Shown here piece after piece: positions 8,809-48,229 of a stretch of 64,000 nucleotides of DNA. Position 1 is the stretch's first letter. The number at the start of each line of letters is the position of its first letter. Made by a program: the position numbers and the translations under genes. The stretch lies in assembly GCA_000165345.1 (NCBI GenBank), contig CM000429.1, positions 96,001-160,000 of the forward strand, given 5' to 3'. The notes under the pieces were generated by a model that saw only the letters and a list, made by a program, of their open reading frames with translations, did no database searches and was not told the origin of the DNA.

Positions 8809-10057
8809 TTAATGAAAATAATCATTAATTTCAATCTTTGATTTCAATGTAATGGCATCACTGACTTGAACTCCAATGGCACCAATGATCTGGATAACAA
8901 CATTCTGAAATTTGTTTGAAATTTTAAAATGTTTCACGAATAATTATTTAGATATGGCAAATATTTCAAAAAAAAAAACTTACAAGTAATGATGTGTAAA
9001 GAACACGATTGATTTTTGTAGATGATTGCTCTGGAGACCAATTGATTAACAAATTATGATTATTTTGCATATTAAATAGATACAATGATGGTACAGTTAA
9101 AACTGAAGTTATATCTTTAAATTTTTGTCTAATGGGTATGATATTAATTGTCTTTGACGTAATAGTCTTAGAAGAAGGGAATAGAAGTTAATGTGTGATA
9201 TTTTTGTTTAAGTTTAAGACTTACTATTTTAACACAAGTTAATTGATTTTCCATAAATAAGCTTATGGTTTCGTGAGAACTGGATGACAATGTCAATGAA
9301 TTAATCTTGAAGATAATATCTTTGTATTGATAAGGAGAGTATCTCGTAGATTGGCATATACTTGACTTGGGATCGTATGAAATGGAGGAATAATTGAATG
9401 CTTTAAATATTTTTGAATCTTTTTCTATATTCTTATGAACCATTATTTTAAAATTCAACTCACTAAGTTTATTGATTTCTGTTTCCTTAACTATATTGTT
9501 TGGAATACAAGAAATCAAACAGAGTATATCTTCGTATACTTGTTTAAATAATTCAAATAGAATGATTTGATTATTATCAATTCTTGTAGGTAAATATTTA
9601 ATTATAAGACTGAAATTTGTATTTTTATTTGTTATGATTTGAAATTTGATGATTAAGTTAAACATTACCTTAAATACTTTGAAAAGTATGCCCCATTAAT
9701 TAATATTATTCTAAAATCATCTTTGTAATCTCTAATTTTATCATCAGATCTCAGAAACTGACAAATATTCTCAAAGAGCTCTCCTGTTGAAACAACTCCA
9801 AAGGAATTTCTTTCTGTTGCCAATATTTGGTCCAATGGTATTTCTATTTTTTGTTCTATTTCACATTTTGGGACTAGTAATTCTTTACCATTTGAATCAC
9901 TTTCTTGAAATTTGCCGCTCAAATCAAATTCATGTTTTTGTATTTTCATGATTAATGCATTCATTTTATTAATTTTCTTAGATTTTACCCCTTCGTTAAA
10001 AAATTCCATCAACTTCTCCTCAAATAGACTGCTACCTACTAATACAAACTCACTCAT
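8809..10057 (-). CDS. four-exon gene, ~350 aa hypothetical protein: join(10057..9669, 9609..9225, 9166..8984, 8904..8809) on the minus strand
   Basis: Track ORFs 9665..10057 and 9168..9665 overlap as G-TAA-TG. Intron 1: donor AAG|GTAATG at 9668, acceptor caaatttcAG at 9610. Intron 2: donor AAAATA|GTAAGT at 9224, acceptor ttcttctaAG at 9167. A third frame then stays open for 61 codons to CTT|GTAAGT (8983), with acceptor aaatttcAG at 8905 and a final exon NVVIQIIGAIGVQVSDAITLKSKIEINDYFH*. Total 1053 nt = 351 codons. Confidence 0.45.
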
Positions 10058-10500
10058 TTTGATACTTTATTGATTAAATTGGCTTCCTAACTTATTTGAG
10101 TTTTTAACATTTTATTTATCAATTTTGTTTTATTATATAATTTTTGAAAACATCATGCCTAATGCTGCATGCATTCTTTTTTTTATGGCAGTTTAGGCGG
10201 GAAGTCAATTAGAGAGGGGAGGAATAAAGTGGAAAAATTAAAAAAAGTAATTATGATTATGGGATATGAAATTAATTAATAGAAAAAGAATGATTGGTAA
10301 ATTATTGGTAGTATTGAATATAATTAGATGTAAGAATTGATTATTTATATATTTTCTACTAAAAAGTAATATGATTACAGAGTAGATTTTGCTTAAGTTT
10401 TAAAAAAAGTACGTGTGCATGTGAATTTTCTCCAATTATATGTGGGGTAGTAATGAATAATAAAACTTATTATAAATCTATTATAATTTAAAAATTATCT

Positions 10501-11305
10501 TTATTTTTTATTAATAACACGATCTTTTGTTTCAGTCAAAGTTGGATAATTATCAGTGAAACACTGAGTATAGCACTTAATCAAGTCATGGTCTTTATTT
10601 AAACTATTTAGAAGATCCTTAGGTTTCTGTTTGTATATAAATTATTTATAAAATAAGGAGAAGAAATTTTAACAAAAAAAAAATTGTCATTTTGTTGCAA
10701 GTAGATATAAAGTTAAGTAAATTTTGCCTTAATAATTATTAGCTTACCTTAAATAGATTTTCGAATTTATTGAAACACAGTTGGTGGCAATTCATCACAT
10801 TTTCGTTAATAATATTTAATTCTTGATTAACTTTATTTTGAAAGGTTTCAAGAGGATCTTGACATTTCTGCATTATAATGGAAAACCAAACAAAGAAAGA
10901 AAATCCAATATAAAAAAAGTATAATCATTTTTATTAAATTTTGCTATTATCATTAGTTTATTAACATACCTTTAGACAATCTTGAATATTTTCTAATGAT
11001 TTTTTTTTGTCTGAATTTTTTAAGTATTTTGAAATACAATTTGAAGAGCATTCAAAAGCTTTTTTCTGGTCATTTAGAGTAGAGAATGTGATCTAATTAA
11101 AAAAAAAGTTTTGCAATTTTATACGTAACAATCAGCATTCAATGGCATGAATTATAGATTAAGTATTAAATCAAGTATTATTAAAACTAGTTTTGGAAAG
11201 GGGAGGAATGAAACATACATCATCAACTTGATCTTCAAATTTTTTTCTGAAATCTCCAATATATTCCTCAATTTTATTTACTAAGTCAATTGTAAAATTT
11301 GACAT
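10501..11305 (-). CDS. FAM136A/DUF842-like protein with four CX3C motifs (151 aa), four exons: join(11305..11219, 11092..10970, 10867..10748, 10626..10501)
   Basis: No track ORF. Exons end in GAT|GTATGT, AAG|GTATGT and AAG|GTAAGC. Acceptors are ttaattAG, ataatgcAG and acaaacAG. Spliced protein MSNFTIDLVNKIEEYIGDFRKKFEDQVDD-ITFSTLNDQKKAFECSSNCISKYLKNSDKKKSLENIQDCLK-KCQDPLETFQNKVNQELNIINENVMNCHQLCFNKFENLFK-KPKDLLNSLNKDHDLIKCYTQCFTDNYPTLTETKDRVINKK. The four CX3C motifs align with human FAM136A (FRCSASCC, QCIERCHVPL, RCTMHC, SCVTKCVDD). 456 nt = 152 codons. Confidence 0.6.
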
Positions 11306-11787
11306 TCTTAAAATTTTCTTTTGTGGCTTATTGTCAAAATTACTTTTTTAGTTACTTGGCCGGGTGAAAATAAAAATTAATGTGGGGGGCTGTTTACAAT
11401 GGGGGAGAGCGCGTTGGAAAAGTTTCAAAAGGTATTAAGCTACAAAGGCAACAAAAAACTATTAGCTTTTTAATAAGCTTATCTTATTTTGGTATTAAAA
11501 AAACTAAAATTTTCATTCTAATTCAATTTATGAGAAGAAACTAAACTCTTAAGTAAAATTTTGAATTTATTCTTCTTTTTCTTTTAATCGTAATAATAAA
11601 TAAAACAAATATTGAAATAATTTCCTTTTATTTCTCTCATCTAATTATTTTATTTATTAAAAGAAATAATTTGTCCACATGAAATTGCATGTAATTTTTT
11701 ATCATCAAAAACATTAGCACACATTCCTATACCGGCATTAATAAAATAAAGAAATTGCATGTGGGGGAAAAAAAATAATCATAAATA

Positions 11788-13128
11788 ATGAATATTTCAT
11801 CATTTAGAATAAAAAGAAGGAAAAAAAGTGAGGATGACGATGATGAGAAAAAAGATAGTTCAAGCTATGAGGAATTACTGGAAGTTATTGCACCAATAAA
11901 CAAATTTAAGAGTAAGCCAGCATTAGGAGTAACTACATTTTCAAGACAAATGTGGTGCGAAAAAAGCTTAGAAATTTGTCTCGAAAATAATATTAAAATT
12001 ACAAGTAAAGCTATTGAAGAAGGTATTAAACACCATGAAGAATTAGAGCTAGAAGATCACCAAGTTCTCAGTGTAATGGTAGAGAATGAATACGAGAAAA
12101 TGGCAATTGAAATTTTAAGTATAGTAAATCTATTGGATGGGTTAATTGAAAGAGGATATATTCGTGAGCTTCCAATAATTGGATTTTACAAAGGAATAAT
12201 GTTAAGGGGAATAATTGATTCATTACAATTAAAACCAAAATTAAATGGAATTGGAGAAACTAATAATGTAAAATATTCATCAAATAACATCAACAAGTTT
12301 ATTATTTTGATATCAGATACAAAAACTAGAAGAAATACAACTCTTCCAAGTAATGTTCAGCAAAAGACTACAGTTCTACAGCTTGGATTGTATAGAAAGA
12401 TATTGGGTGAAATGATTAATTTTGGAAAAATCTGGAAATCTTGCCATCCTAATTTAATTGATTCCAATGCAATTAAAAAATATTTGAATTCTTCTTCAAC
12501 CATAGATTTGTCAAACTGTTGCTCTGGTTGCAGTTTCCTAAATAATATTTTCGAGTTTCATGGATTAGACCCATTAATTTCTTTTTCAATATTTCAAGAA
12601 TTGGAAGATGCAAAAAGAAAGCAATCTTGTAAAGAAAAAAATGATATTTGTGATACAAATCAAGACCAAATTCAAACCGAAACACATTCTGAGACAGAAT
12701 CTGTAGTTGATACTGACGGGAAAAGCGTCCTAAAAGAGTTTGAAAACGCCCTTGAAATTGGTTTTAACATGTTACTTTGCTTCTCAAAACTTCCAGATAT
12801 TCAGTCAGAAATGAAAGTTGAATACGATTGCCAAGGTAAAACTTTCGCTACAAAATGGTATAAGTCTTCAGAACAGACTATTGAGCTTGAACTAGATTAC
12901 TTATTGGGTTGGTGGCTTGGTGCTAGAGAAGCTGAATTTGTTAGAATCTCAGAGGCATGGAAATGTAAGTTTTGTAATGTAATTGAATATTGCCAAGTAT
13001 GTCCTCTTTCAAAAGAAGAAAAAGAGAAATGTATTGAAAAAATACGTCAAGACGAACTAGAGTCATTACTAATTAAAGATTTGGAAGAATCATCTAATGA
13101 GCATATTTTAACATTAAATTGTTCATAA
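11788..13128 (+). CDS. EXO5: Exonuclease V (Exo5/DEM1 family; PD-(D/E)XK nuclease with Cas4-like 4Fe-4S cysteines), 446 aa
   Basis: N-terminal VTTFSRQMWCEKSLEI (the WCE motif of Exo5). C-terminal C-x2-C-x5-C (CKFCNVIEYC) plus the N-terminal Cys gives the one-plus-three cysteine FeS pattern of Exo5/Cas4/AddB nucleases. Basic KRRKK N-terminal tail. Confidence 0.65.
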   Translation: MNISSFRIKRRKKSEDDDDEKKDSSSYEELLEVIAPINKFKSKPALGVTTFSRQMWCEKSLEICLENNIKITSKAIEEGIKHHEELELEDHQVLSVMVENEYEKMAIEILSIVNLLDGLIERGYIRELPIIGFYKGIMLRGIIDSLQLKPKLNGIGETNNVKYSSNNINKFIILISDTKTRRNTTLPSNVQQKTTVLQLGLYRKILGEMINFGKIWKSCHPNLIDSNAIKKYLNSSSTIDLSNCCSGCSFLNNIFEFHGLDPLISFSIFQELEDAKRKQSCKEKNDICDTNQDQIQTETHSETESVVDTDGKSVLKEFENALEIGFNMLLCFSKLPDIQSEMKVEYDCQGKTFATKWYKSSEQTIELELDYLLGWWLGAREAEFVRISEAWKCKFCNVIEYCQVCPLSKEEKEKCIEKIRQDELESLLIKDLEESSNEHILTLNCS

Positions 13129-13436
13129 CTATTTTAAATTTTATTATATGGTCATTAATCAAAAATATGAGATTCAAGTTAAAATATTTTTTTCATATTT
13201 TCTTATATTCATTTTAAACTTAAATAAAGAAATTACTTTTTTTAACAATTCAAATTTAATTTATTGTTAAATACGTGTGAAGCTTAAATAGTACCATAAT
13301 AACTATTAACAAATAATATTTACCTAACACACACTATAAAAGACCCCAAAAAAAAAAAAATTAATGAACAAATAAATGAAATTACTCATCTAAATAATTT
13401 TTAAAAAATAATAAAATTTCATAATTTTGATATATA

Positions 13437-15221
13437 ATGCCATCAAGCTCAGCTTTATCCACTAAATGCTGTAAAATTATTGATGAATATGAAACTAAGC
13501 TAAACAAAGAGCTTGGAAATGCATGCAGGGAGGGGGCAGTAAGCGCGCCAGAGTTAAAAAAGTACAATAACTTAAGAAAAGGAAGTCTTCTGGGAACAAA
13601 TTTGGTAAATAGTGTTATAGCATCTGAAAGTCCATTTAGAAGAGATTCGAGCTTATTGTGGTTATCATATGATCCATCTAATGAAAGACAAAGTGAGATA
13701 AATAAGATGATTAAAAATGAAGATGGAACAGCAGTTCCAGATATGTGCGATAAATACGTGTTGGTAGATACTTATACAAGTATTTTAGCTTCAAATAGAC
13801 AGCAGGCTTGCTATATTTCACTATTATCTCCTCTTCCTCAGGATACTGTAGTTGGTATAAAATTTGGAGATCACTTGTGTCAAGGAAGAATTAACGATAC
13901 AATGATTGAATATATATCTCCATCTCTTCCTGTTGGACGTCAATATGCAAGACTATATTTAAATAGTGTGAAGATGGGAGTAAAGTTTGGGAATGGGAAT
14001 ACAATGTCAGAAGCAAGAAGTTATTTACCTTTTGATGTAATAGTTCAAGAACCAAAATCGCGAAGATTGAATATTAAAAAGCATAAGACCTCAATACCTG
14101 TTGGAGTTATGGGGCCAGCCCCATTACCAGAAGTTGATATAGAAGATGAAGTTGAGGAGCTATTAATAATGCATAAGCCAAGAGGAAATGCTTCTATAAT
14201 TTCAAGAAGGCATGCTTTAGATAAATATTTCAAAGGCACGCATTCAAAAGTAGTTAATGCTCCAAGACGTGAAACTGGTGACTTAAATAACTTAGACCCA
14301 TCATTCAAGGCTGCAGTTAATAGAGATTTTTTGAGAAGACTCTCAAATATTACTTTAGAACCAGATTGTAGAAGAACTATTAATTTATTAAATGAATTTA
14401 TATCTAAGTTAGACCCAGGTGCAACAAATAATTTAATACCTTTTAATGTTAAATTAGAGTATTGGAACAGAGTTTTATCCGATGGATGCCAAGAGATTAT
14501 TGATAATTATCATAGTTATATTACACAAGAATCATCCAATGAGAAATCTGTTTATATATTTACTAAAACTTCTCCTGATTCACTTGAACCATACAATGTA
14601 TTTATGTTTTCTTGTATTATGGATGAGGAAAATAACAATTGTGTACCATTATTGAGAAGATTCACATGTAGCCCAGAAAATTGTGGAGATGTAAGGCTTT
14701 GGATATGTATTGGAGATTGCTATCTTGCAAAGAACGAAGTTGCAAATAATTATCGAAAGATTGATTTGCCTTGCCCAATTCCTCCAATAATGAAGTCAAA
14801 AAAATCTGCTCATATTTGGAGTAGAGCAAAAAATAAGTCTAATACAAACTCAACATTTTCATCAAGGAAGTTTGGTATTGGTAATTTTGTGTCAACACGA
14901 GGAGTTGGAGGAGGGTTACTAGGAGCTGCTGGTGTTGGTGCAGGCGGTATCGGAGCAGGAATTGGTGCTGATGAAGATTTTAATGCTGAAAACGAAAACT
15001 CTTCTGAAAAAGAAAGGTGCATTCAAATTTCGAATGATGTTTTTTTATTTTTTGAGATGTGGCCTTCAAAACTTCTTCCAAATGCTGGTAATACTACAGA
15101 GTCATATTCATTTATCTTATGTATTAAAAATCATCAATATCACTCAATAACTGGTATTTCAAAGCCAGTACTTAACTTTATTCTTCAAAAATGGCTCACA
15201 AAAGTCCCCATTAACTCTTGA
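13437..15221 (+). CDS. hypothetical protein (594 aa) with a Gly-rich segment near the C-terminus
   Basis: ATG at 13437. Continuous 594-codon ORF. No recognisable domain. GVGGGLLGAAGVGAGGIGAGIGAD glycine tract. Confidence 0.5.
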   Translation: MPSSSALSTKCCKIIDEYETKLNKELGNACREGAVSAPELKKYNNLRKGSLLGTNLVNSVIASESPFRRDSSLLWLSYDPSNERQSEINKMIKNEDGTAVPDMCDKYVLVDTYTSILASNRQQACYISLLSPLPQDTVVGIKFGDHLCQGRINDTMIEYISPSLPVGRQYARLYLNSVKMGVKFGNGNTMSEARSYLPFDVIVQEPKSRRLNIKKHKTSIPVGVMGPAPLPEVDIEDEVEELLIMHKPRGNASIISRRHALDKYFKGTHSKVVNAPRRETGDLNNLDPSFKAAVNRDFLRRLSNITLEPDCRRTINLLNEFISKLDPGATNNLIPFNVKLEYWNRVLSDGCQEIIDNYHSYITQESSNEKSVYIFTKTSPDSLEPYNVFMFSCIMDEENNNCVPLLRRFTCSPENCGDVRLWICIGDCYLAKNEVANNYRKIDLPCPIPPIMKSKKSAHIWSRAKNKSNTNSTFSSRKFGIGNFVSTRGVGGGLLGAAGVGAGGIGAGIGADEDFNAENENSSEKERCIQISNDVFLFFEMWPSKLLPNAGNTTESYSFILCIKNHQYHSITGISKPVLNFILQKWLTKVPINS

Positions 15222-15465
15222 AATAGATCTTTTTTAAACCTAGTACATTAATCATCTATAATATCTCATCTATTCTTACCTGAATAAACTTATATATTCT
15301 TCGTTTAACTTGAAAATCCCCATTATTCAGGTCAAAGAAAAACTGAATAGATTAAAAACTGAAATTAGAAAAAACTATAGAAAAAAAATAATGCAGACAT
15401 GTCATAAATAATTTATTTAAAATAAACTATAACTAGTATTCTCTCCCTTAATAATGCATGCAAAT

Positions 15466-15540
15466 ATTACGTGGCCAAATTAATCTTTAATAATTACATG
15501 TGGAAAGCGTGCATATACTATGCAATACCGGCATTACATG
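15466..15540. promoter_or_regulatory. promoter-like motif cluster (GCATGCA ... ATACCGGCATTACATG ... TTGCCGCG) inside a 3'-3' convergent gap
   Basis: taatGCATGCAaatattacgtgg ... caATACCGGCATTacatgtaaatg ... tttgccgcg. The flanking genes (13437..15221 on + and 16051..16548 on -) both end here, so there is no obvious promoter target. Confidence 0.35.
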
Positions 15541-16050
15541 TAAATGATTAAAAACTTTGCCGCGTATACAAATATCAGCTGTCATAAAGATTTAAAAAAA
15601 AAGAAACTGCATACACGATAACTGGAGTATTATTTGTTTTGAATCATTTATATAAATCTTTGTGACTTCTCAAGTGTAATTGTGGAAAGAGATAATAACC
15701 AAGTAAAAATGATCATCAAAAACCTTATTCATTAGTTTACAATGCTTTGAGTAGGAATAAAATATGGATTGTCCGTTCTTCAATCACTTTATATTTGTTA
15801 ATAGGTTCATAAGGCTATAAGAGTAGAAATAGTAATATGTACAATTGTCTCAGATGGATACATAGAAGTTACCATTTCAATTCAAGTAAACACCAAAAAC
15901 AGAAAAAAAAAATGAGAAAGACGAATTCTCTCCATATCACTATAAACTCAAATGAACAATTTTACTAAAATATGTTTATTGCCCAATTATAATTCCCAAC
16001 CTTGAACTTTTTAATAGTCACAAAAAAAAAAGAAATATTTAGTAACTGAT

Positions 16051-16548
16051 TTAAATGTATGATGCACATAATTGGCCAGTTGGCTTTGTAGTACCCATAA
16101 TGATACCAATAATGACACCATAAATGGCCAAAGCTTCACCGAAAACCAAAATCAAAATCATACCAGTAAGAAGTCTTGGTTGTTGAGCAGCAGCTCTAAC
16201 ACCAGCATCACCGACAATACCAATAGCAAGACCGGCAGCTAAACTACTGAGACCAATAACCAAACCAGCGCTCATTTGAGCATAAGCAGTGTAAGCAGAG
16301 TACAAATTTGGTTCTCCCATCTGGAAGAAAATGACCAAAGAACCAATCAAACCATAAATACCCAAAATACCTGCCATAACAGCTGGAATAATTGATCTCA
16401 TAATTAAATCTGGTCTCATTACGGCCATAGATGAAATACCAACACCTGATTTAGCAATTCCATAAGCTGCTCCTAAGTTTGCAAAAATCAAGCATCCTGC
16501 AATTCCCAGAAATCCAAAAAATAAACTGTTTGGGTCACAAGTGATCAT
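16051..16548 (-). CDS. VHA-c: V-type H+-ATPase 16 kDa proteolipid subunit c (165 aa)
   Basis: Four transmembrane helices. Signature GAAYGIAKSGVGI...MRPDLIMRSIIPAVMAGILGIYGL...IVGDAGVRAAAQQPRLLTGMILILVFGEALAIYGVI with the conserved proton-binding Glu in TM4. Confidence 0.9.
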   Translation of the reverse strand: MITCDPNSLFFGFLGIAGCLIFANLGAAYGIAKSGVGISSMAVMRPDLIMRSIIPAVMAGILGIYGLIGSLVIFFQMGEPNLYSAYTAYAQMSAGLVIGLSSLAAGLAIGIVGDAGVRAAAQQPRLLTGMILILVFGEALAIYGVIIGIIMGTTKPTGQLCASYI

Positions 16549-17180
16549 CTTTTATCTACCAATATACAGCTAATTGCCTTTCAGCGATTATTGTTTAATT
16601 ATATAACAAAGTTCTTGTACTTACGATTCTTAATAGAAAAAAAAATTTCTATATTGAACCAAGCTTGCCTAATATTAGTTAGAATTTGTCTCTTGGGGGT
16701 ACATTATTGGATAAATCTTACCGCCACAATTTGGCGGTAATGATTCAATTATTCCTCAAAGTTGCTCAAATTACTTATTAAATATTCCTTAAAATGAACT
16801 AAAATTGTGTCCCAGATTAATTATTTTTTACTGAAAAATCAAATTTATTTTATTCACAAAGGTCGATATTTTTTAATTATTTTTTTGTTTTTAATTTATC
16901 AAAATTCATATTTTATTCTTTGTTTTTTATGCTGATATTTATATATATTTCATCTTCTTAAAGTCTACTCACAATTTTCTCTACAATTTTAAACTAGTCG
17001 TATGATCATAAATCTTCTATTCTTTTGAATCATTTGAATCATTTCGAGAAGTTTTTCGTTCTATATGAAATTCTATTGCTAATAACTTTGGCGCCAGACA
17101 TACGGCGCCTCAATAATAACATTGAAATACGATAAATAACGCTGCATTTTGATTAGGAAGTTACGAATTAATAAATAAAG

Positions 17181-17420
17181 ATGTTTTTGAGGTTTTACAA
17201 GAACGAGAAAGGAGAGAGAGTTTATACATTATCGGTAAGTTTTTGATTTTTTTTTCTATTATGAATGCTTAATGATATTGAAAATTAATAGGCAGTGAAT
17301 AAGGAGGGTGAAATCACATTTTCAGCTCATCCTGCAAGATTTTCTCCTGATGACATTTATTCATCTCAGAGAATTGCATGCAAAAAGAGGTTTGGACTAT
17401 TACCAACTCAGCGTCAATAA
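17181..17420 (+). CDS. NOP10: H/ACA snoRNP protein NOP10 (60 aa), two exons: join(17181..17234, 17292..17420)
   Basis: No track [21 protein letters not shown] | GTAAGT ... ttaatAG | [42 protein letters not shown]. Matches the NOP10 consensus (YTLK....[29 protein letters not shown]). Intron 57 nt. 183 nt = 61 codons. Confidence 0.8.
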
Positions 17421-17878
17421 AATGGGTGAAGCTTTTGCAAATAGAGAGTTTAGGTTAAAGTGAATACATTCCTATATAATGATCGGGAATATTTCATTGT
17501 TATAACGGTATTCATCGATTCTAACAGGATACTTTATAAACAATACATAGGAATATCACTGGAAAAAAAATAATATTTAATAAATTGAATAATTTCCTAA
17601 TATAGATAAAAATAATTAATCTAATTATTATTATTCTTATTATCATCTATCCATTCTGTCTAATTTTTGTATGAATTCCTTATATTTAAATGAAATCACA
17701 ATATATTGAATAATCAAACTTATTCTTATGTTCTTGAAAGTATATTATACCTTTATAATAATTATAAAAATAATACAATAATAACAATAATAATAATAAT
17801 AATAATAATATTGATATTAATATTAATAGTGATTATAAACACTAATAGTAATAACAGTAAGATTAGTTATATTAATCA

Positions 17879-20094: not shown

Positions 20095-20330
20095 TGAGTT
20101 TTTGAAATAACAACTAGAAATTTAAAAAAAAAAAAAAAAAACTTTTTTCTTATTATTATCTGAAAATTGTCCTCTAAATAATTATTCTAATATTACCAAA
20201 CTCTCTTCACCTTTAATCCTCTTTTATTCTTATCCACTTAATATGGAAATATACCGATAATCATTAAAGATAAGATGAAATCTCTATTTCATCTTTATTT
20301 TATAAATACCATTTTGTAAAGTCTGACATT

Positions 20331-29757: not shown

Positions 29758-29782
29758 TTGCTTCAACTGACTGCTTTGCAAC

Positions 29783-37645: not shown

Positions 37646-40600
37646 TTAAATATCAGCTTCTTCAGCTTCTTTATTAATATCATCTATTTGTTGTTGTATT
37701 TCTTGGTTGAGAATTTTATCTTCAGTAGTTTTTTTTGCCCTCTGACCAAAATCACGTTGCAAAAAGTCGTCAGAATCACTTTGGTAGTCTCCTTCATCTG
37801 TAGTTATATCAATATTTGTGCTAGGTTGTTGGTTTAAATCAGAAGGATATCCTGAAGTGATAGTTTGCCCTGGAGCTTGTGGGGGTGTTGGTGGCGTTGG
37901 TGTTGGAGTTGGTGGAAGTGTTGGTGGTGGAAGTGTTGGTGGTGGAAGTGTTGGTGGTGGAAGTGTTGGTGGTGGAAGTGTTGGTGGTGGAATTGTTGGT
38001 GTTGAAATTGGTGTTGGTGGAAGTGTTGGTGGTGGAATTGTTGGTGCTTTTGGAGTTGGTGGGAGTGGTGGGAGTGGTGGGAGTGGTGGGAGTTTCGGTA
38101 GTGTTGGAGATGGTGGAGATGAAGGAGATGGTGGAGTTGGTGGGAGTGTTGGAAGTGTTGGTGTTGAAATTGTTGGTGTTGAAATTGGTGTTGGAGCTGG
38201 TGGAGTTCCTGCAGGACCCGATATTACCGAAGCTCCTTGTTGTATTGGTGAAGCTGGCTTTAAGCCTGATGATGTAGTTGCCCCTGAATGACGCATTTCC
38301 TTTTCCTTTTCAAGAGCTTCTTCATGTGCCTTATTTAAATCAACACTGCTTGAATCGGTTAAAATTCCTTTAATATCATCTCCTTCTCCGCCAAGCTCTT
38401 CCAATAACTTATCTTCAACCTCTTCAGGGGTAGGAGATAATGGGCTTGGAAGTGTTGGAGATGGAACTCCTGGGGCTGTTGGAGGTGGTGAAGACGGAAA
38501 TGCTGGCATTGGCGGAGCTGGTGGAGATGGTGAAAGTGTTGGAATTGGAGGCGGTGGAGGTTGGTATTCAGGTTTTGGCGGAATTGGTGAGGATGATGGT
38601 GGTGTTGGAATTGGAGACGATGGAAGTGGGTATCCAGGCATTGGTGGAGATGGTGGAGGGAATAATGGTGGTGCTGGCACTGGCGGAGGTGGTGGGGAAA
38701 ATGATGGTGGTGTTGGAATTGGAGACGATGGAGGTGAGCGTCCAGGCATTGGTGGAGATGGTGGAGGGAATGATGGTGGTGCTGGTGCTGGCACTGACGG
38801 AGGTGGTGGGGAAAATGGTGGTGTTGGAATTGGAGTCCCTGCAATTGGCGAAACTTCTGCAGGTGAAGCAACTCCTGAAACTTGTGAAGCTGGAACCGTT
38901 GGACTTCCTGCAGCAATTGGAGTCCCTGCAACCGTTGGACTCTCTGGAGTCATTGGAGATCCTGTAGCAATTGGAGTTCCTGTAGCCGTTGGACTTTCTG
39001 GAACTGATGAAGAAATTTGAGTTTCTGGAATTTCTAAAGTAGGCTTTGATTCTTTAACTAAAGAAGTACCCAATTTTTTTCCAAGCCCTAATCTTCTTTT
39101 CTTTCCGTTTGTTTTTGCTTTTTGCTTTTTATCACTCCTTGACTTCTTTCTGCCTGCTCCCTTTTTCCCATGCTTTCTAGAAGCAACTCCTTTACCTTGC
39201 TCTGCATCTGATGACAACTCCGAGCTTGAATATTCTTTGTTCCCAGTCTTCTGTATTCTAGACCTTAGTCTATCCAATACCTTTCTTTTTTTCAATTCCT
39301 TTTGTTTAGACCATCTTTTCTTGAATTTCTCTTGTTTCATCTCACTAATTATACTATTTGCAACCAAATCTATTATACTTTCGCTTGAACCTTCTGTTTT
39401 ATTATCTTCTAACTCCGCATTTTCTTTACCTACTTCTCCTTTTTTCCTATCCATCTCTTCTTTAATGGCGTTTTCCTTTTCTTTAGTTAAATCCAAACTA
39501 CTTGCACTTGTGTCAATTCCTTTAATATCATCACCTTCTCCTCCTAATTCTTCTAACAACTTTTCCTCTGATTCCCTTGCTGACTTTTCTGAACCCTCAA
39601 CTCTCACTGTAACTTCTCCTTTAGGTATTTTTCCTTTCTTCTCCTTGTACTTCTCTTCTTTGATGGCTTTCTCCTTTTCTTTAGTTAAATCCAAACTACT
39701 TAAACTTGTTTCAACTCCTTTAATATCGTCACCTTCTCCTCCAAACTTTCTCAATAATTCATCCTCAGACCCCTTACTTCCCTTCTTAATTCCTTTCTTA
39801 CTTCCCTTTTTACCTTCCTTCGGCCTTCTTGATATTGTAATTCCTCTCTTGGTCTTCTCCTTCTTGGTAGCTTTCTCCTTTTCTTTAGTTAAATCCAAGC
39901 TACTTGCACTTGTGTCAATTCCTTTAATATCATCACCTTCTCCTCCTAATTCTTCTAACAATCTTTCCTCTGATTCTCCTGTAGAGCCTTGTAAATAATC
40001 CCAAGTCTCATGTCTCTCAATCCTTGCCTTTTCCTTATTTATTCTCCTCATCCTATCTTCTTCCATCTTCTTCCTTCTATTAGAATCCAAAAGAGATTTT
40101 CTTAGTCTTGTTCTCGGCCAAGAAAACAATAATTTCCTTTTCAAAAACTTAATGGATTCCTCCATTCGTTGATTGTAGTATTTCTTTAATTGAATTGCTT
40201 CTTTAACATAAACAGAAATCTCCTCCCTTAGTTTCGTCCTAGCACTTGATATATTCTTACTCTTCTTTTGACCAGAAAGTGCTTTAAACTGTTCCAATTT
40301 ATCGCTTAATTCCGATCTTAATTTTATCATCTTCGCTCTAACACTTTCTGATTCTCTTTCATTCGTACTTGGACCAGTTGCTATCTCCCTATCCAAAATC
40401 ATTATTGCGTTGGAAATCCTGGAAATCATTAAAGAACCAGAAGGCCCTTGCTCATTTCCTGAACTGTCTGAATCACTAGTCAAATCAAAACTACCTATTT
40501 CTGAATCTCTACTTGCGTCACTTGTTTGAACATCGCTTGTATCTGTCATAAAACTATCCAAGTTTAATCCAGGAACAATGTTTTTCATTGTATTTAATAC

Positions 40601-43600
40601 CTCACTAAATTGCTCCTTCTGCTCTTCAAATTTCTTCTTCATATCACTAAAACGAGAAACAGCTAACCCTAATAACTTTATCTTTGTTGAAATCTTCTTT
40701 TCTAACTTTCTAATCCTAATATTATAAGCAGAAGTTCTTGCCCTCTCTCTCATTCTTGAACTGCTCTCTTCCGTTTCTTCAGTTACTATTACATTCAAAG
40801 AGTTTAATCTACTATTCAATAATTCTCTTGTATTCGATAATAAATACATATCAGAGTTTATTCTTTCTGTCGTTCCAATATATTCTGATAATTTTGCTAA
40901 TATCTTAGCTTGTCTTCTTGCCATTACCTGACATTTCTTTAAAATCTCTGAATTCAGCAGTGTATTGCTTCCAACTAGAGTAAGTGATAAGATTGCTAGT
41001 AAAGACTTGATTCCAGCTTCCAAACCATCAATATTTGTCTCAAAAACTTCCAATAATAATTTAGTTGAGACCAATAATTCGTTAGAAAGTGCAACACAGT
41101 GAACTCCTGCTCGAATAATATCATCTTGATAAGCAACTTCCTCTTCAAATCTTAACCTATCAAGATTTATTTGGCACTTATAGTAGTCCATAAGACTCTC
41201 TAATTTGTTCTCTTGTTGAACTGCTGTATTTAATGTTGAGTATTCACTTTCAAGCAAAACTTCATGTGACAATAATATCAACTTTTCCAAAGATAAAATC
41301 ATCAAAAAGTATGTTTGATTAACCCTGTAATAAATTAAAGTTTGATTAAACAATTCCAAGTTCCTTTTCAGCAATGACTCGTAACTACTTGCCATGACGT
41401 ATCGATTCATCTTTGCTTCACTCAAATTCATATCCTCCTTTCTTAAATTGACCATGATACCCTGACATTTCTTCTCAAGCCTACGATACTTTTTAAATTC
41501 TCCCTGTATTTTCTTCAATAAATCCTTGTAACTTTCAGAATCCATTTTATTCTTACTCTTTTGCTTAGATATCTCACCTTTCAACAAAGAGTAAAAAGAC
41601 TTCTTTGCTTTGCTTAATTCAGTCTTGCATTTCTTATATTTATTATGTATATTCTTTCTTACTTTATTTATTTTATCCAATTTCCTTTTAAAGTTCTTTC
41701 TAATTATTCTAGATTCAATCTCAAGTCCTTTTGTTACCATAATTGATCCTGTTAACTTCTTAAGACATTCTTGATATTGAGCTGTCAATCTCACTACGTC
41801 CGATAAAATACCCTTTGCGTCATCTAAACGATTTGTATTTACAATATCTGATAGCAGACCTTCTTTTAAATCAAGCATTCTATATAAACTACTTTGATAA
41901 GACATACACTCAGACCTCAAATTCTTTATCTTAGAACCTTCCAACTTCAATGAATGGAATATAGCAGCATAATCATTTTCTTCATTTATGTACCCAAATC
42001 TCTCTTCATCACTGCTAGCCATTATTTGTGTGCTTCTCTCACCGATAGAAGAGCTTTTTTCCAACTCAAATTCCTCTTGAAGGAAGAAATTAGATGTGAA
42101 TGGAAATGTTGGTCCAACTGTACTCTTTATTAAATTCTCTTCAAACTGTAATTCCGTAGGTGTTTCTAAAGCAGGAGGTTTATCTTGTGCTGGCTTTTTC
42201 TTCTTGGGCTTTGACGAGGAAGCAGGTTTAGTCTTTCTTTTCGGAGTAATATTTGATAATTGTATCAATTCTTGTCGTAAATAGAAGGGAATCTTCATAC
42301 CAGCTGGGCTGAAAGCTGAAGGTGCAGAGTGAATTTTGGCTGATAATAATCTCTTACGAGCTTTACTTCCAATAGGGAAAGCTCCAGTAGAAGATCTAAC
42401 TTTAGATTGTCCATATCGTGAATGTGAATCTAATAATGGATGTTTTTGACTTGACATTTTCTTTAACATTTTAACCCTCCTGGCAATAAGAGCACTCTTA
42501 ATCTTTAACTCTCTTTCAGTCTTAGGCTTTCTCTTAAGCTTTAATTTCTCAAGTAAAGCAAGCTTTCTAACAACACGAGCTGATCTTTTCTTGGAAACTG
42601 TTTTAAGGTTTGGAACATTTGTAATTAGAGAAAGTTCTAGTTTAGTACCAAAACTAGCCAAAAACGACTCATCTAAACGATCACTTTTAGTCTTCATTGC
42701 TCCCAATATCTTATTTGAAATACTCTTGGACTTGGATTTTCTCCATTTATTTAGAATTTCTAATCTTAATACGGATGAAAAAAATATAGGACGAGTATCA
42801 TCCGAGGTTGGAGCAACAAACATTTCTTGTAACTTTTGGATCTCCTTATATTTCTCAGAATTTAACTTTTTGAGTTTGTTATTTAAGATTTGTCTAGATG
42901 TTTGAATGCCTTCAATGAACTCGCCTTCAATATTGAATAAGTTTGGGATTGGTCCAGAATGTGATGGGATATCTGTTGGACTTTGGGAAGGAAATAAATA
43001 GGTATGTTTATTAAGTGCGTCCAGCATAGCATCGGTTTTGGCTTGTACATTACCCCCATCCAACAATTTCTGATTTTGGGAAAGAGGATAAGTCAAGTAA
43101 TCTCTTTGTCCTGGAACTTTGGAAAAGATATAACTTCCATCCAATTTATCAGAGTTGATTTCAAAGTATTTCTCGGCGTTATAAATTTCGTTTTCAACTG
43201 AACTTATTATAACCAATGGATCCAAAGAACATGCAACTTTTGATGTTGCAATTACCTGTTTGACAATACCAGTATGCATTGAGAATATATTTATCTTAAT
43301 TGGATCCCTATTCTTGAGCTCTGCAGTGAATTCTATGGTAACTGTTCCCAAAAGAGTCTCAGCTCCCTCTTCTCCACTAACAAACATCCCTGCAATAACA
43401 AACATCTCGACAGAATACTTCATTAAGGAAGAAGTATAGATGTTATAATCATCTAATTCACCAAACTTTCCAAACAAATACAAAAATTCTCTGGAAAGAA
43501 GATATCTAATATCTCCATAGCGATACATAGAAACCATTCTAATTACATCCAAACTCAGAAAATCCAAATTCCATGGTCTTGGACCGAATATCTGGATCTC

Positions 43601-45229
43601 TTTCCCAGTGTAACTTGCAGCCTTCAGTTTAATCCTTTTCTCGTCATTCTTCATGTTATTCCATCCTGCAATTGCTAAGCCTTCCCATTTTGGTACTGGA
43701 AGTTGGTTTTCTTGGTAATTTTCGAGATGTTGTTTCTCCATATTGTAAACATAGGTGTTTCCAGGGACGCTTCCACTTCTAACCCTCCTTTCAAAATTTG
43801 ACATTTTTGCTTTGGGAGCCATATTGCTTCTGAGCAACAATTTTGAATCATTTAATCTTTCTAATGAATCATTTTCTTCTCTAAGAACCACCTCTTTGGG
43901 TCTTTCTTTATCCTCACCTTTGTTAGGTTTAGGCAAAGATAAATTTGGTAATAAGTCTAATTCAAGGCCAAAATTTTTCATGTGGCTTATTAAAGTATCT
44001 CTTAATTCATCCAAAGTTTTAGTAGCTTTAATATCAAAAATCATTTCATTCCTCAAATTTGATGAGATATTTTTACTGTTGACCTTTATCAAATTCAGGC
44101 TGTTTTTTATATGTTCTTTTACCAGCCAGTCACTAACCTGGCCAAATCTATCGCTTACCAAAATATCGTTTGGATATCTTTTTTTTAAGCCTGGTCTGGG
44201 AACGAGATAAGAAGGACTTGAGTTGCATTTTATAACTAACATAATCTCTTCCATGTAATCCTTATTCCCGTAATACCCTGAATTTGTCTGGCTAGCATTC
44301 AAGCCTGAAGATTTACCATATTGTAGCCACCTTTCGCTAAGCCAAACAATTGATCCATCACATGGAGAAACAATATTCTCCATATGAGTTTTACCCTCCT
44401 TGGTAATTGAAGCTATCGCAAAAGGAACATTTTCCTTGACAAGTGTGCCCACACTTCCTGTTAAGCTCGCCCCAACATTCAGGTTGAGCTCTAGCTTAAG
44501 TTCTGAATCACTGTAAATAGGTTTAATTTCGGCAACATAACCACTCCTTAGAAAGGCATCCAATGAACTCAAAAGAGTTGATGATGAATTCTTATATTTT
44601 TTTGAATATTTGAAGAGTGCTGAAACATGAAGTAATCCTCGAAACATAATTGGTAGATAAGTATTTGAATCTACAACAATGTCATCCAGATCAATTAGAT
44701 TCATTTCTGGATTCTGTAAACTATAATCTCTCATCTTCCAAAACAAAAATCTTATGTCATCATGCTTAATGCCTCGATTCTTGAACAACTTTGTGCAAGC
44801 TAATATATTCGTTATAGACATATGAGTACTACCAGGCCCTAATATTCCACTATTTCCATTTTCATAGATACAAGGAGATCCCAAAAATATGCCTACTTGA
44901 ACCTCATCCCCAGTACTTTCCAAAATTTGGAGGTCAGTCTTCGAGCCATCCCTTAAATTATGCATTTCAGGCTCAACCAATCCTACAAGTAAATTGTTTC
45001 CAACAACAAGCTCTCCTCCTCCTAATATGGAGCCATTATATCCCATTTCAATATTATATTTGACATTTCCAGAGTGTACTATCTCAACATTTCTCTTTGT
45101 ATCAAATACAGTTATTAAAGGTTCATTACTTCCAGAGCTTGTACTCGGAGACTTTAACCCAATTCCCGTACAAAGACTCGAAAATAAGAACAATGTGACT
45201 GCGGTTGAAGTGAGTAAGAGTCTACCCAT
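37646..45229 (-). CDS. giant secreted repeat protein (2527 aa): signal peptide, ~1000-aa N-terminal region, long coiled coils, repeated EELGGEGDDIKGIDTSASSLDLTKEKEKA units, C-terminal polyproline (PPTLPPPTLPP) block and acidic tail
   Basis: ATG at 45227-45229, signal peptide MGRLLLTSTAVTLFLFSSLCTGIG. Continuous 2527-codon ORF. Nested nucleotide repeats at 37911-38005, 38590-38830 and 39460-39985. Confidence 0.6.
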   Translation of the reverse strand: MGRLLLTSTAVTLFLFSSLCTGIGLKSPSTSSGSNEPLITVFDTKRNVEIVHSGNVKYNIEMGYNGSILGGGELVVGNNLLVGLVEPEMHNLRDGSKTDLQILESTGDEVQVGIFLGSPCIYENGNSGILGPGSTHMSITNILACTKLFKNRGIKHDDIRFLFWKMRDYSLQNPEMNLIDLDDIVVDSNTYLPIMFRGLLHVSALFKYSKKYKNSSSTLLSSLDAFLRSGYVAEIKPIYSDSELKLELNLNVGASLTGSVGTLVKENVPFAIASITKEGKTHMENIVSPCDGSIVWLSERWLQYGKSSGLNASQTNSGYYGNKDYMEEIMLVIKCNSSPSYLVPRPGLKKRYPNDILVSDRFGQVSDWLVKEHIKNSLNLIKVNSKNISSNLRNEMIFDIKATKTLDELRDTLISHMKNFGLELDLLPNLSLPKPNKGEDKERPKEVVLREENDSLERLNDSKLLLRSNMAPKAKMSNFERRVRSGSVPGNTYVYNMEKQHLENYQENQLPVPKWEGLAIAGWNNMKNDEKRIKLKAASYTGKEIQIFGPRPWNLDFLSLDVIRMVSMYRYGDIRYLLSREFLYLFGKFGELDDYNIYTSSLMKYSVEMFVIAGMFVSGEEGAETLLGTVTIEFTAELKNRDPIKINIFSMHTGIVKQVIATSKVACSLDPLVIISSVENEIYNAEKYFEINSDKLDGSYIFSKVPGQRDYLTYPLSQNQKLLDGGNVQAKTDAMLDALNKHTYLFPSQSPTDIPSHSGPIPNLFNIEGEFIEGIQTSRQILNNKLKKLNSEKYKEIQKLQEMFVAPTSDDTRPIFFSSVLRLEILNKWRKSKSKSISNKILGAMKTKSDRLDESFLASFGTKLELSLITNVPNLKTVSKKRSARVVRKLALLEKLKLKRKPKTERELKIKSALIARRVKMLKKMSSQKHPLLDSHSRYGQSKVRSSTGAFPIGSKARKRLLSAKIHSAPSAFSPAGMKIPFYLRQELIQLSNITPKRKTKPASSSKPKKKKPAQDKPPALETPTELQFEENLIKSTVGPTFPFTSNFFLQEEFELEKSSSIGERSTQIMASSDEERFGYINEENDYAAIFHSLKLEGSKIKNLRSECMSYQSSLYRMLDLKEGLLSDIVNTNRLDDAKGILSDVVRLTAQYQECLKKLTGSIMVTKGLEIESRIIRKNFKRKLDKINKVRKNIHNKYKKCKTELSKAKKSFYSLLKGEISKQKSKNKMDSESYKDLLKKIQGEFKKYRRLEKKCQGIMVNLRKEDMNLSEAKMNRYVMASSYESLLKRNLELFNQTLIYYRVNQTYFLMILSLEKLILLSHEVLLESEYSTLNTAVQQENKLESLMDYYKCQINLDRLRFEEEVAYQDDIIRAGVHCVALSNELLVSTKLLLEVFETNIDGLEAGIKSLLAILSLTLVGSNTLLNSEILKKCQVMARRQAKILAKLSEYIGTTERINSDMYLLSNTRELLNSRLNSLNVIVTEETEESSSRMRERARTSAYNIRIRKLEKKISTKIKLLGLAVSRFSDMKKKFEEQKEQFSEVLNTMKNIVPGLNLDSFMTDTSDVQTSDASRDSEIGSFDLTSDSDSSGNEQGPSGSLMISRISNAIMILDREIATGPSTNERESESVRAKMIKLRSELSDKLEQFKALSGQKKSKNISSARTKLREEISVYVKEAIQLKKYYNQRMEESIKFLKRKLLFSWPRTRLRKSLLDSNRRKKMEEDRMRRINKEKARIERHETWDYLQGSTGESEERLLEELGGEGDDIKGIDTSASSLDLTKEKEKATKKEKTKRGITISRRPKEGKKGSKKGIKKGSKGSEDELLRKFGGEGDDIKGVETSLSSLDLTKEKEKAIKEEKYKEKKGKIPKGEVTVRVEGSEKSARESEEKLLEELGGEGDDIKGIDTSASSLDLTKEKENAIKEEMDRKKGEVGKENAELEDNKTEGSSESIIDLVANSIISEMKQEKFKKRWSKQKELKKRKVLDRLRSRIQKTGNKEYSSSELSSDAEQGKGVASRKHGKKGAGRKKSRSDKKQKAKTNGKKRRLGLGKKLGTSLVKESKPTLEIPETQISSSVPESPTATGTPIATGSPMTPESPTVAGTPIAAGSPTVPASQVSGVASPAEVSPIAGTPIPTPPFSPPPPSVPAPAPPSFPPPSPPMPGRSPPSSPIPTPPSFSPPPPPVPAPPLFPPPSPPMPGYPLPSSPIPTPPSSSPIPPKPEYQPPPPPIPTLSPSPPAPPMPAFPSSPPPTAPGVPSPTLPSPLSPTPEEVEDKLLEELGGEGDDIKGILTDSSSVDLNKAHEEALEKEKEMRHSGATTSSGLKPASPIQQGASVISGPAGTPPAPTPISTPTISTPTLPTLPPTPPSPSSPPSPTLPKLPPLPPLPPLPPTPKAPTIPPPTLPPTPISTPTIPPPTLPPPTLPPPTLPPPTLPPPTLPPTPTPTPPTPPQAPGQTITSGYPSDLNQQPSTNIDITTDEGDYQSDSDDFLQRDFGQRAKKTTEDKILNQEIQQQIDDINKEAEEADI
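37911..38005 (-). repeat. 15-nt tandem repeat (GGTGGAAGTGTTGGT)x5-6 encoding PPTLP units inside the giant CDS
   Basis: ggtggaagtgttggtggtggaagtgttggtggtggaagtgttggt... Confidence 0.8.
39460..39985 (-). repeat. three ~205-nt direct coding repeats (EELGGEGDDIKGIDTSASSLDLTKEKEKAIKEEK units)
   Basis: The string ttctccttttctttagttaaatccaa(a/g)ctacttgcacttgtgtcaattcctttaatatcatcaccttctcctcctaattcttctaacaa occurs at about 39462, 39665 and 39875. A degenerate fourth copy lies near 38360. Confidence 0.75.
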
Positions 45230-45926: not shown

Positions 45927-47015
45927 TTAGAATTTTTTGTTAAGCCAATCCATGCAAAGTAAGGTTATCATTGCATGTGGAGCAATCCTAAAATAGTACG
46001 TTAGGTACCCTTTAAAGAAACCACTTAGCCCTTGGCTCTTGTATATGTGTGTGATAACTTTACTATAACTATTCAAATTGTGATCTTCGTGTTTTGTTAT
46101 TAAAGACTCAGAATCCTCTTCATCAACTGTCTGTTTTTGTATTTGGGTCTTTATTGTGTCAAAAGGGAGGGATACTACGCTTGCAACGGCACCCGAAAGA
46201 ATGGATGAAAGAACCTTAACAAAAACTTGATTCTTTTCTGGTCCTGTCCATCTATAACATACTTCAATAAAATGGTCGAATGTGGCAAGCATTCCCATAT
46301 TAATTGACATTGCTCTAATTATAGAGGGAATGGATCCTTTCCACATTGAAAAGAAACCCTCTTCCTTAATTATATATTTCATTGCTTGTAATACATTTTT
46401 GTAGTATTTTTGTTTGCTTAAAGGTAACAGAGAATTGGTTTGTAGCCTGATAAGTGCTAAATCTACAGGATTGCAAATAAATGAAGAAATACCTCCAGAT
46501 GTTAACCCTATCAGGGCTTTAACTCCAAGAGACAGATTACATACTTTGTGGCCCTGATAAACCATTTGGTTCTTATAGTAATCACATAATAACCTGAAAA
46601 TTCCCAATCTCGCAGTCGAATAAGTTAGTTGTCTGATTAGACCTGCATCTAATCCCTTATAAAGCCCCAAAATTCCATTCTTGTTAACTATATCTCTAGC
46701 TAAAGAAAAAGGAGTTGGTTTTGAATATCCTTCAAAGTTCTGTAATTGCATTTTTATCTTAACAATGTCTATTGGTTGAATCTAAGAGTTGAAATTATAT
46801 ATTAAAGTTAATTAAAATAATAATATTAATTAAAAACGTATATATGGCCTCCACTTAGTTTTCATGACTCTCAGATTCACTAAAAGTCTGAAACCCTACT
46901 TTATAATCCTTTAACTTACACATATTGTCGCAATACATCCTGAAATTCCTCCATTTATGAAAGGCCTTAACACTCTAAACCATCTTCTTACCAACCCTTC
47001 TTTCAACAATATCAT
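45927..47015 (-). CDS. mitochondrial carrier family protein (SLC25; oxoglutarate/dicarboxylate-carrier-like), 316 aa, two exons: join(47015..46920, 46781..45927)
   Basis: The track ORF starts after the first PxDxxK motif. In-frame upstream codons read IQPIDIVKIK-MQLQ with an acceptor (ctcttAG) at the upstream TAG. Exon 1 (MILLKEGLVRRWFRVLRPFINGGISGCIATIC | GTAAGT) supplies TM1. Compare the oxoglutarate carrier (FLFGGLAGMGATVFVQPLDLVKNRMQLSGEG). Two more PxD/ExxK motifs (NPVDLALIRLQ, LPFDTIKTQIQ). 951 nt = 317 codons. Confidence 0.75.
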
Positions 47016-47465
47016 TCTCTAACAGCTATTTGAATCAAATAAGCTTCAAGAAAAATCTTAATATTCTCTTCACCTATTTTTTATTTTTACTCGTCAAATA
47101 CTTGATACAAACAAAAACATTCTTATTCTTTACTATTTAAAAAAAAAAATTGCAACACTAACATAACTAAAAGGTTCATATACTAATATTGTTAAATACA
47201 AATAATATACCACCCTTCATAACCAAAAACATGAACCAGTTAAAATCTTATTTCAATTAATCGTTTTGCCTTATTTTAGTGTCCGCAAGACATTTTTTGG
47301 TCATGTTACATGTTTTTGGCGCCAACTTTATTCCAAACATGTTGAATAATTGGAGTTAAGTATTTTTTAAAAAAAAAAAGTTTGGAGTTGCCGCCTTTTC
47401 CTTTAGAGGTTAAAAAAAAATATTAATCAAGTTAGGAGAAAAAATAAAACCAAGGGAAATTCGAA

Positions 47466-48229
47466 ATGTCATCTTTGAAGCACTCAATCCATAGGAGAGT
47501 GCACTTGGAGAGAGCGACTCCAGTGAACAGACTTCGATTTGGGATTTTAGAGCGTAAGAAAGACTATAAGATAAGAGCAAAAAGGTATCATGAGAAGGAA
47601 AATCTCTTAAAATCTCTATCAGAAAAGGCAAGAACAAGAAATCCAGATGAGTTTGACTTTGGTATGGTGAATTCCAGACTGGAAAATGGTAGATATAAAA
47701 AGATTGGATCTGACCTACAAAACGGCGGTCTTACAAGTGCTGAAGAGAGAAAGCTTGCGGAGAGTCAGAACCTGACATATGTCCATTTTAGAAAATCAAT
47801 TGATAATAAGGTAAGTTGTTTCGCTAAATTATTCCCTGTTTGTTTCTTTTGTTTATATTCTATTAGAAAATTGAAAGAATGGAAAAAGAGTTGACATTAT
47901 TTGGCCAAAATATGCAAAGAAGCCATATTTTTTTTGATGATGAGCACGAACAACTAGAAAGTGGTTCACAGAAAAATAAAAGCAATTCAAAGAAACTCAA
48001 AGATTTAGATTCACTTTCGAATTTAGAAACTATTCCAAAGGAAGTTGTCAAAAATATTACCAAATCTTATAAGATTTTTAATGATACAATTGCTAGATCA
48101 CAGAAACTAGAAAAAGTATCCAAGCATCTTGAGCTACAGAGAGACCTCAAATCTAAAGGAAAGAAGAAGAAGGTTGTAACAAAGAATGGAAATACTGAGT
48201 ATGTATGGTATCCAAAAAGAAAAAAGTGA
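47466..48229 (+). CDS. UTP11: U3 snoRNP / SSU processome protein UTP11 (235 aa), two exons: join(47466..47810, 47867..48229)
   Basis: MSSLKHSIHRRVHLERATPVNRLRFGILERKKDYKIRAKRYHEKE...RNPDEFDFGM...KSIDNK | GTAAGT ... tattAG | KIERMEKELTLFGQNMQRSHIFFDDEHEQ...YVWYPKRKK. Colinear with human and yeast UTP11 (MAAAFRKAAKSRQREHRERSQ...LLEKKKDYKLRADDYRKKQ...KNPDEFYYKM...HVFFFD). Joins track ORFs 47466..47894 and 47879..48229. 708 nt = 236 codons. Confidence 0.8.

Follow-up and report, generated by a model that had tools for sequence, protein, structure and literature searches.

The published share of Cryptosporidium parvum genes that carry introns stood at 4.3% in the original annotation and at 10.8% (688 introns) after the 2015 re-annotation guided by RNA sequencing (RNA-seq; PMC4637869), and reached 14.59% in a 2019 comparison (PMC6617386 Table 1) and 18.9% in the IOWA-ATCC annotation (PMC10438818 Table 1), whose 3,892 genes contain 1,364 coding-sequence introns (0.35 per gene) averaging 87 nucleotides (nt; PMC13125899 Table S1). 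In other species of the genus the share is 20.3% (C. muris) and 27.6% (C. proliferans) (PMC10438818, PMC13125899). Here we describe the introns of a 64-kb stretch of DNA, hereafter the window (positions 96,001 to 160,000 of contig CM000429.1), in which an earlier reading of the sequence, the original prediction, saw an intron density far higher than expected for a genome in which introns were supposed to be confined to a small minority of genes. That premise is out of date, and the apparent anomaly arises because its baseline was the 2004 estimate of 4–5%, made from open reading frames (ORFs). We conclude, with a probability of about 0.8, that the window is a segment of C. parvum with 16 ordinary, old introns, 15 of them already annotated, that its modest local excess probably follows gene content, and that a single intron has been missed.

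The window matches C. parvum assemblies at 99.5–100% identity across 20-kb stretches (BLASTN, fetched loci), and IOWA-ATCC and CP029780.1 at 99.9–100%. An exact-sequence look-up of three intron-free ORFs located them on CP044422.1 (IOWA-ATCC), CP029780.1, CM109961.1 and CP141118.1, and synteny with near-identity to C. parvum chromosome 1 extends over more than 60 kb, placing the window at approximately 101–165 kb in CP029780.1 coordinates. It contains 24 protein-coding genes and one tRNA-Leu, slightly fewer protein genes than the approximately 26 first proposed.

Introns were sought as all GT..AG combinations that restore an ORF of the recorded length within the gene ranges annotated in C. parvum assemblies. 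For Bud20, the WD40 gene, the mitochondrial carrier, DUF842 and Nop10 several combinations did so; those with canonical GTA donors were kept, and exact matches to deposited proteins confirmed the choice. These solutions amount to 15 introns, and the spliced products are identical to deposited C. parvum proteins for seven of the eight genes, the DUF842 product differing by one single-nucleotide polymorphism (SNP, window position 10518). A four-intron model of DUF842 was rejected, as the three-intron model equals the deposited protein QOY43581.1 once the SNP residue is changed. The sixteenth intron, the third of the uncharacterised gene at 8809..10057, was read from the sequence. The original prediction, eight genes needing 16 introns between 8809 and 48229, is thereby reproduced exactly (Table 1).

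Table 1. Intron-containing genes of the window, their introns and other features. Coordinates are window positions unless stated otherwise; aa, amino acids.
Feature	Coordinates	Strand	Details
cpbgf_100490 / CPATCC_0038920, uncharacterised	8809..10057	-	corrected model 350 aa, 4 exons; deposited 324-aa model = 8966..10057, 2 introns
intron 1	9610..9668	-	59 nt, GTAATG..CAG, phase 2; sole ORF-restoring solution; GT..AG at same place in C. ubiquitum (74 nt), chipmunk genotype I (54 nt), C. canis (59 nt)
intron 2	9167..9224	-	58 nt, GTAAGT..AAG; orthologous introns 64, 60, 53 nt
intron 3	8905..8983	-	79 nt, GTAAGT..TTTCAG; GT(A/G)AG..AG in three species at 78, 72, 77 nt
terminal exon, unannotated	8809..8904	-	31 codons, NVVIQIIGAIGVQVSDAITLKSKIEINDYFH, then stop
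DUF842 (FAM136A-like)	10501..11305	-	151 aa, 4 exons; Pfam DUF842 E=2.7e-17, profile 5-128/131; one SNP against QOY43581.1
intron 1	11093..11218	-	126 nt, GTATGT..TAG; orthologues 117, 113, 106 nt, flanking exon lengths constant in all species
intron 2	10868..10969	-	102 nt, GTATGT..CAG
intron 3	10627..10747	-	121 nt, GTAAGC..CAG
Nop10	17181..17420	+	60 aa, 2 exons; exact deposited match; Pfam Nop10p 1-52/52, E=6.5e-20
intron	17235..17291	+	57 nt, GTAAGT..TAG; orthologues 61, 58 nt
Bud20 / ZNF593-like	19405..20094	-	107 aa, 4 exons; exact deposited match; Pfam zf-C2H2_jaz E=9.5e-8
intron 1	19882..19991	-	110 nt, GTAAGT..TAG
intron 2	19759..19821	-	63 nt, GTACGT..TAG
intron 3	19478..19670	-	193 nt, longest of the 16, GTAAGT..TAG; orthologues 180, 236 nt
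WD40 gene	30130..31567	+	389 aa, 4 exons; = QOY43573.1
intron 1	30190..30333	+	144 nt, GTAAGT..CAG
intron 2	30504..30571	+	68 nt, GTAAGA..TAG, phase 2
intron 3	30855..30910	+	56 nt, GTAAGT..TAG
Dynamin-related protein (DrpB-like)	34004..36611	-	817 aa, 2 exons; = QOY43571.1; Pfam Dynamin_N, Dynamin_M, GED
intron	36422..36575	-	154 nt, GTAAGT..TAG, after codon 12
Mitochondrial carrier (oxoglutarate/malate translocator)	45927..47015	-	316 aa, 2 exons; = QOY43569.1; three Mito_carr repeats
intron	46782..46919	-	138 nt, GTAAGT..TAG
UTP11	47466..48229	+	235 aa, 2 exons; = EAK88603.1 / QOY43568.1; Pfam Utp11 1-242/242
intron	47811..47866	+	56 nt, GTAAGT..TAG
tRNA-Leu, anticodon TAG	56853..56933	-	sole Rfam or ARAGORN match in the window
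Left-flank intron genes	11785..21134 of the fetched left-flank locus		outside the window
Right-flank intron genes	1684..4957 of the fetched right-flank locus		outside the window; 2/2 complete genes, 450-aa and 357-aa proteins

The current reference annotation already includes 15 of these 16 introns. Compared with chromosome 1 of C. parvum IOWA-ATCC/BGF (cpbgf_100490, cpbgf_100493 and neighbours; QOY43568-QOY43582), those 15 give identical proteins, and the intron at 8905..8983, with the terminal exon behind it, is missing from the deposited cpbgf_100490 and from the IOWA-ATCC annotation. The idea that ORF-based calling had left these loci systematically under-annotated holds for old or ORF-only calls, in which UTP11 is split into 142 and 116 amino acids (aa), truncation leaves 274 aa of the carrier, 752 or 800 aa of dynamin and 136 or 312 aa of the WD40 product, the gene at 8809..10057 is split into 130 and 165 aa, and DUF842 is omitted; in one recent C. 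parvum annotation (GCA_031892065.1) two of the eight genes are still split or left out. It does not hold today, when one intron remains unannotated, the other 15 having been fixed by the RNA-seq-guided re-annotations of 2015–2022 (PMC4637869, PMC8744675). The IOWA-ATCC authors state that annotated introns are 100% supported by RNA-seq (PMC8744675). The intron set is thus ordinary and already known, what is left over is a minor gene-model correction, and an analysis from raw sequence has independently reproduced the RNA-seq-guided re-annotation.

All 16 introns begin with GTA and end with AG, as expected of U2-type introns with donors complementary to U1. The donors are GTAAGT (10), GTATGT (2) and GTACGT, GTAATG, GTAAGC and GTAAGA (one each). 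Lengths run from 56 to 193 nt with a mean of 99 nt, the upper bound of 154 nt given earlier having missed the third Bud20 intron, and the introns are AT-rich as claimed, with 20.8% GC against 32% in exons. Both length and composition are typical of the genome-wide C. parvum values of 87–99 nt mean length and 22% GC (PMC4637869 Table 1; PMC13125899 Table S1); C. parvum has no clear branch-point consensus (PMC2483917). GTAAGT as a motif is not enriched in the window (30 sites against 22 ± 4 expected). Left unspliced, each of the eight genes meets a premature stop between codons 17 and 143, and splicing restores the frame and an intact protein. Pfam domains cross the splice junctions in DUF842, Nop10, UTP11 and the carrier, where the first Mito_carr repeat (residues 14–102) spans the junction at residue 32.

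Orthologous loci were compared in C. ubiquitum, Cryptosporidium chipmunk genotype I, C. canis, C. muris, C. ryanae and C. serpentis, with up to three species per gene, and every one of the 16 introns has a GT..AG pair at the orthologous place in at least one of them (WD40 intron 1 being judged by eye). In genomic alignments of the first four genes of Table 1, dynamin and UTP11, each intron has GT..AG at orthologous columns, orthologous exons are equal in length or differ by multiples of three while the introns vary in length without such constraint, and intron identity is usually below that of the adjacent exons. The dynamin intron lies at the same codon in C. muris (81 nt) and C. ryanae (90 nt), and the UTP11 intron at the same place in C. 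ubiquitum (55 nt) and C. serpentis (66 nt). For the carrier in C. serpentis, where the nucleotide alignment of exon 1 is unreliable, the position was judged by a tblastn frame change at residue 33 and by the 55-nt intron of the annotated model. The WD40 gene was followed by eye for intron 1, where C. muris has a short exon 1 and then GTAATA..CAG at the same place and C. ryanae a homologous exon 1 followed by GTGGGT, and by a junction search anchored on tblastn matches for introns 2 and 3, where C. muris shows a frame change at the same residue with a GTAAGT donor and a 77-nt GTAAGT intron at the same residue, respectively. Of the comparisons proposed from the outset, those with C. parvum and C. 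muris find 15 introns in the C. parvum annotation and shared positions in C. muris for the WD40 gene and dynamin. The introns are old, their positions being common to other intestinal species and, where tested, to the gastric clade (C. muris, C. serpentis). On the evidence of splice-site sequence and position, we take all 16 to be ordinary, ancient U2-type GT–AG spliceosomal introns.

Two of these loci may also vary within the genus. The tblastn-anchored junction search yielded nothing for WD40 intron 2 in C. ryanae. The C. ryanae orthologue (6376..7401 of the fetched locus) aligns with C. parvum residues 78–385 in a single frame, so that WD40 intron 3 may be missing there though present in C. 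muris, which would be a presence/absence difference within the genus. At the C. ubiquitum locus orthologous to the carrier gene (approximately 8860..9590 of the fetched locus) no carrier is annotated and the C. parvum protein yields only tblastn fragments in three frames at 26–45% identity, a pattern that could reflect decay or loss of the oxoglutarate/malate carrier in that species.

The missed intron lies near the end of the gene at 8809..10057, where a GTAAGT donor at 8983 and a TTTCAG acceptor at 8905 lead into an in-frame exon ending at 8809. The deposited C. parvum model, a single 324-aa sequence under both CPATCC_0038920 and cpbgf_100490, runs through the donor, so that its terminal LL is followed by VSFFF and a stop. 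Models from C. parvum, C. meleagridis, C. ubiquitum, C. bovis and C. xiaoi all end in SL(L/Q)VS.., the VS being the translated GTAAGT donor, and among the deposited models compared only that of chipmunk genotype I (P0033, 348 aa) has the extra exon. When the columns of the three C. parvum introns are removed from the genomic alignment, complete ORFs of 348–350 aa appear in four of four species; in each of them the last exon stays open and stops no more than one codon away from the same position, and its substitutions are commonest at third codon positions (13/20, 11/16 and 14/31). The corrected 350-aa protein is absent from a collection of 15 billion proteins. Comparative sequence evidence of this kind marks the third intron and last exon as genuine, a small case of under-annotation. 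One donor read-through error would then be common to the C. parvum model and the orthologous models of at least four further species, costing them a conserved C-terminal exon, which suggests that these annotations still tend to overlook short 3′ exons.

The product of this gene has an N-terminal ADF-H fold. An AlphaFold2 model of the chipmunk genotype I orthologue P0033 has a mean predicted local distance difference test score (pLDDT) of 60, with values of 60–88 over most of the N-terminal half. A second, C-terminal match to Pfam Cofilin_ADF, at residues ~282–343, spans the new exon junction in all four orthologues, with E values of 7e-4 to 0.03, all below the gathering threshold of 22.4 bits (best score 19.8), and model confidence across this region is low (33–77). 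A product of approximately 350 aa with two ADF-H domains would have the architecture of a twinfilin, and the corrected product looks like a divergent protein of that type; with a score under the Pfam threshold and a second domain of low confidence, it falls short of established membership. An exhaustive phmmer search returned ten matches, and the four among them that were identified by name are all Cryptosporidium records (C. ubiquitum, C. canis, C. felis, C. xiaoi/C. bovis); a profile search of PDB sequences found no ADF-H proteins. The searchable literature held no report of a twinfilin-like protein in Cryptosporidium or other apicomplexans, and nothing relevant under the identifiers of this gene. 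Set against known twinfilins and ADF-H proteins, the similarity stays below the Pfam threshold, the C-terminal domain is a low-confidence one, and actin binding is putative only. If confirmed, a divergent twinfilin-like protein with two ADF-H domains would add to a notably small apicomplexan set of actin regulators.

How unusual the window is depends on the baseline. Eight of its 24 genes (33%) have introns, against 18.9% in IOWA-ATCC (binomial P=0.07), and its 16 introns compare with approximately 9.6 expected per 64 kb (Poisson P=0.035, a value that ignores how introns cluster within genes); set beside the 4.3% of 2004, the same eight genes give P ~5e-6. The flanks, 10 kb on each side and not chosen in the original prediction, are richer still: seven of nine complete genes have introns (P=2e-4), an intron being called where the gene range exceeds the coding length. 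Five of the seven complete genes on the left are of this kind (signal peptidase S24, EMP24, a proteasome subunit, a ubiquitin-conjugating (E2) enzyme and Coq4). Window and flanks together give 15 of 33 genes (P=4e-4), and the local excess, approximately twofold over approximately 84 kb, is real. Of the density first described as far higher than expected, a modest excess survives once the flanks are counted; the window alone does not reach significance, and the extreme value appears only against 4.3%.

The excess follows the kind of gene. Intron-containing genes of the window are shorter than the intronless ones (median 276 versus 591 aa, P=0.013; 235 versus 591 aa with the flanks, P=0.002) and more often carry a Pfam domain (7/8 versus 4/16, Fisher P=0.008), which bears out the early remark that fragmentation is greatest among small housekeeping genes. 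The six largest genes (932–2,995 aa) have no introns despite holding most of the coding sequence, and four of them have low-complexity, repeat-rich stretches in their translations. The likeliest account is that short, conserved housekeeping genes, the class that appears to have kept introns, are abundant in this segment. The large lineage-specific, low-complexity genes here are intronless; the data from some 30 genes suggest that the local excess reflects gene content. Four points weigh against our conclusion. Gene content is an association seen in 24–33 genes, the excess is gauged against a genome-wide average share, the seven of nine flanking genes hint at spatial clustering beyond a simple binomial model, and the splicing of the 15 annotated introns rests on a general published statement by the annotators, that of the sixteenth on comparative evidence. 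Beyond the gene-model correction and the hint of a twinfilin-like protein, what the locus offers is a modest clustering of intron-bearing housekeeping genes.

Among other explanations, the one that survives best is that under-annotation persists genome-wide, so that the true C. parvum share lies clearly above 19% and the window is nearer to typical. Each re-annotation has raised the estimate, the C. proliferans annotation, trained on RNA-seq, reaches 27.6% (PMC13125899), the deposited C. parvum models queried lack one of the 16 introns, the same read-through ending recurs in C. meleagridis, C. ubiquitum, C. bovis and C. xiaoi, and GCA_031892065.1 mishandles two of the eight genes. Yet all eight genes already contain introns in IOWA-ATCC, so the missing one adds no gene to the count, and 15 annotated introns out of 16 imply a small deficit in intron number; we regard this explanation as a serious one that is nonetheless rather doubtful. 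The most far-reaching reading joins a genuine intron-dense island of approximately 84 kb (~45% against 19% of genes), a reference that lacks short terminal exons, and a hitherto unrecognised twinfilin-like actin regulator with a missed exon. That combination is unlikely; were it true, C. parvum would be even less intron-poor than published. The local excess could also be sampling noise coupled with the post hoc choice of a window that looked intron-rich, since 8/24 against 18.9% gives P=0.07 and approximately ten of the ~160 such windows in the genome would look alike by chance. Chance and selection do account for the window; they do not account for the flanks, which no reader had picked, or for an excess that runs on over ~84 kb, and as a whole explanation they are improbable.

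It is very unlikely that some of the introns are modelling devices bridging frameshifts, sequencing errors or decaying genes. There is an example of the kind nearby: IOWA-ATCC lacks 7 nt (GTAGAGC, window 14821..14827) inside the ORF at 13437..15221 (+), which is an intact 594 aa in the window and in CP029780.1, whereas the IOWA-ATCC model has 570 aa, spans 1,778 nt and keeps 65 nt out of the coding sequence, a gap that looks like an 'intron' added to bridge an indel or assembly error. The 16 introns differ from it in having GT..AG at the same codon in other species, with differing intron lengths and preserved exon lengths, and conservation of the boundaries across species rules out sequencing errors and frameshifts for them. 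An origin in a relative richer in introns than C. parvum, an alternative with nothing behind it beyond the first impression, is refuted by 99.9–100% DNA identity to C. parvum chromosome 1 assemblies and by proteins identical to C. parvum records, and we give it next to no credence. The reading that we prefer remains a C. parvum segment whose ordinary introns are concentrated in its housekeeping genes.

Other features of the window lie outside the intron set. Most differences between it and other isolates fall in two genes for low-complexity, repeat-rich proteins whose lengths differ among C. parvum assemblies, at 5219..8017 (+; variants of 928, 930 and 932 aa) and 37646..45229 (-; 2,513–2,527 aa). 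Two 165-aa V-ATPase proteolipid (ATP-synt_C) paralogues, both intronless, stand on either side of Nop10 at 16051..16548 (-) and 17879..18376 (-), a layout kept in C. ubiquitum and chipmunk genotype I. An inverted repeat, TACCGCCAAATTGTGGCGGTA (~16712..16735, -), sits upstream of the V-ATPase c gene, approximately 170 nt from its start (16548). Together with the next ~60 nt it is near-identical in the same two species, a conservation far above that of typical intergenic DNA; the stretch may be a promoter element containing GGCGG. A GTAAGT at 16619-16624, upstream of the same gene, was the one of the 30 GTAAGT sites taken up as a possible further intron, and was rejected, as it reads GTAAAT in two other species.

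Compared with intron-reduced genomes such as those of hemiascomycete yeasts, and with C. parvum itself as analysed by Irimia and Roy in 2008 (PMC2483917), the introns of the window are likewise short, have a strong GTAAGT-like donor and sit in short housekeeping genes, 12 of the 16 at a relative position of ≤0.50, within the 5′ half of the coding sequence. The donor is less uniform here, GTAAGT accounting for 10 of 16 introns as opposed to 84% of the 213 known in 2008, and early intron sets may have been biased towards perfect donor consensus. The larger difference is one of class. The figure of 4–5% should be dropped as the expectation for Cryptosporidium: against the cut-off of 0.15 introns per gene that defined intron-poor genomes in that study, C. 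parvum now has 0.35, and it leaves the intron-poor class of comparative studies, in which it had been a previously unexplained exception.

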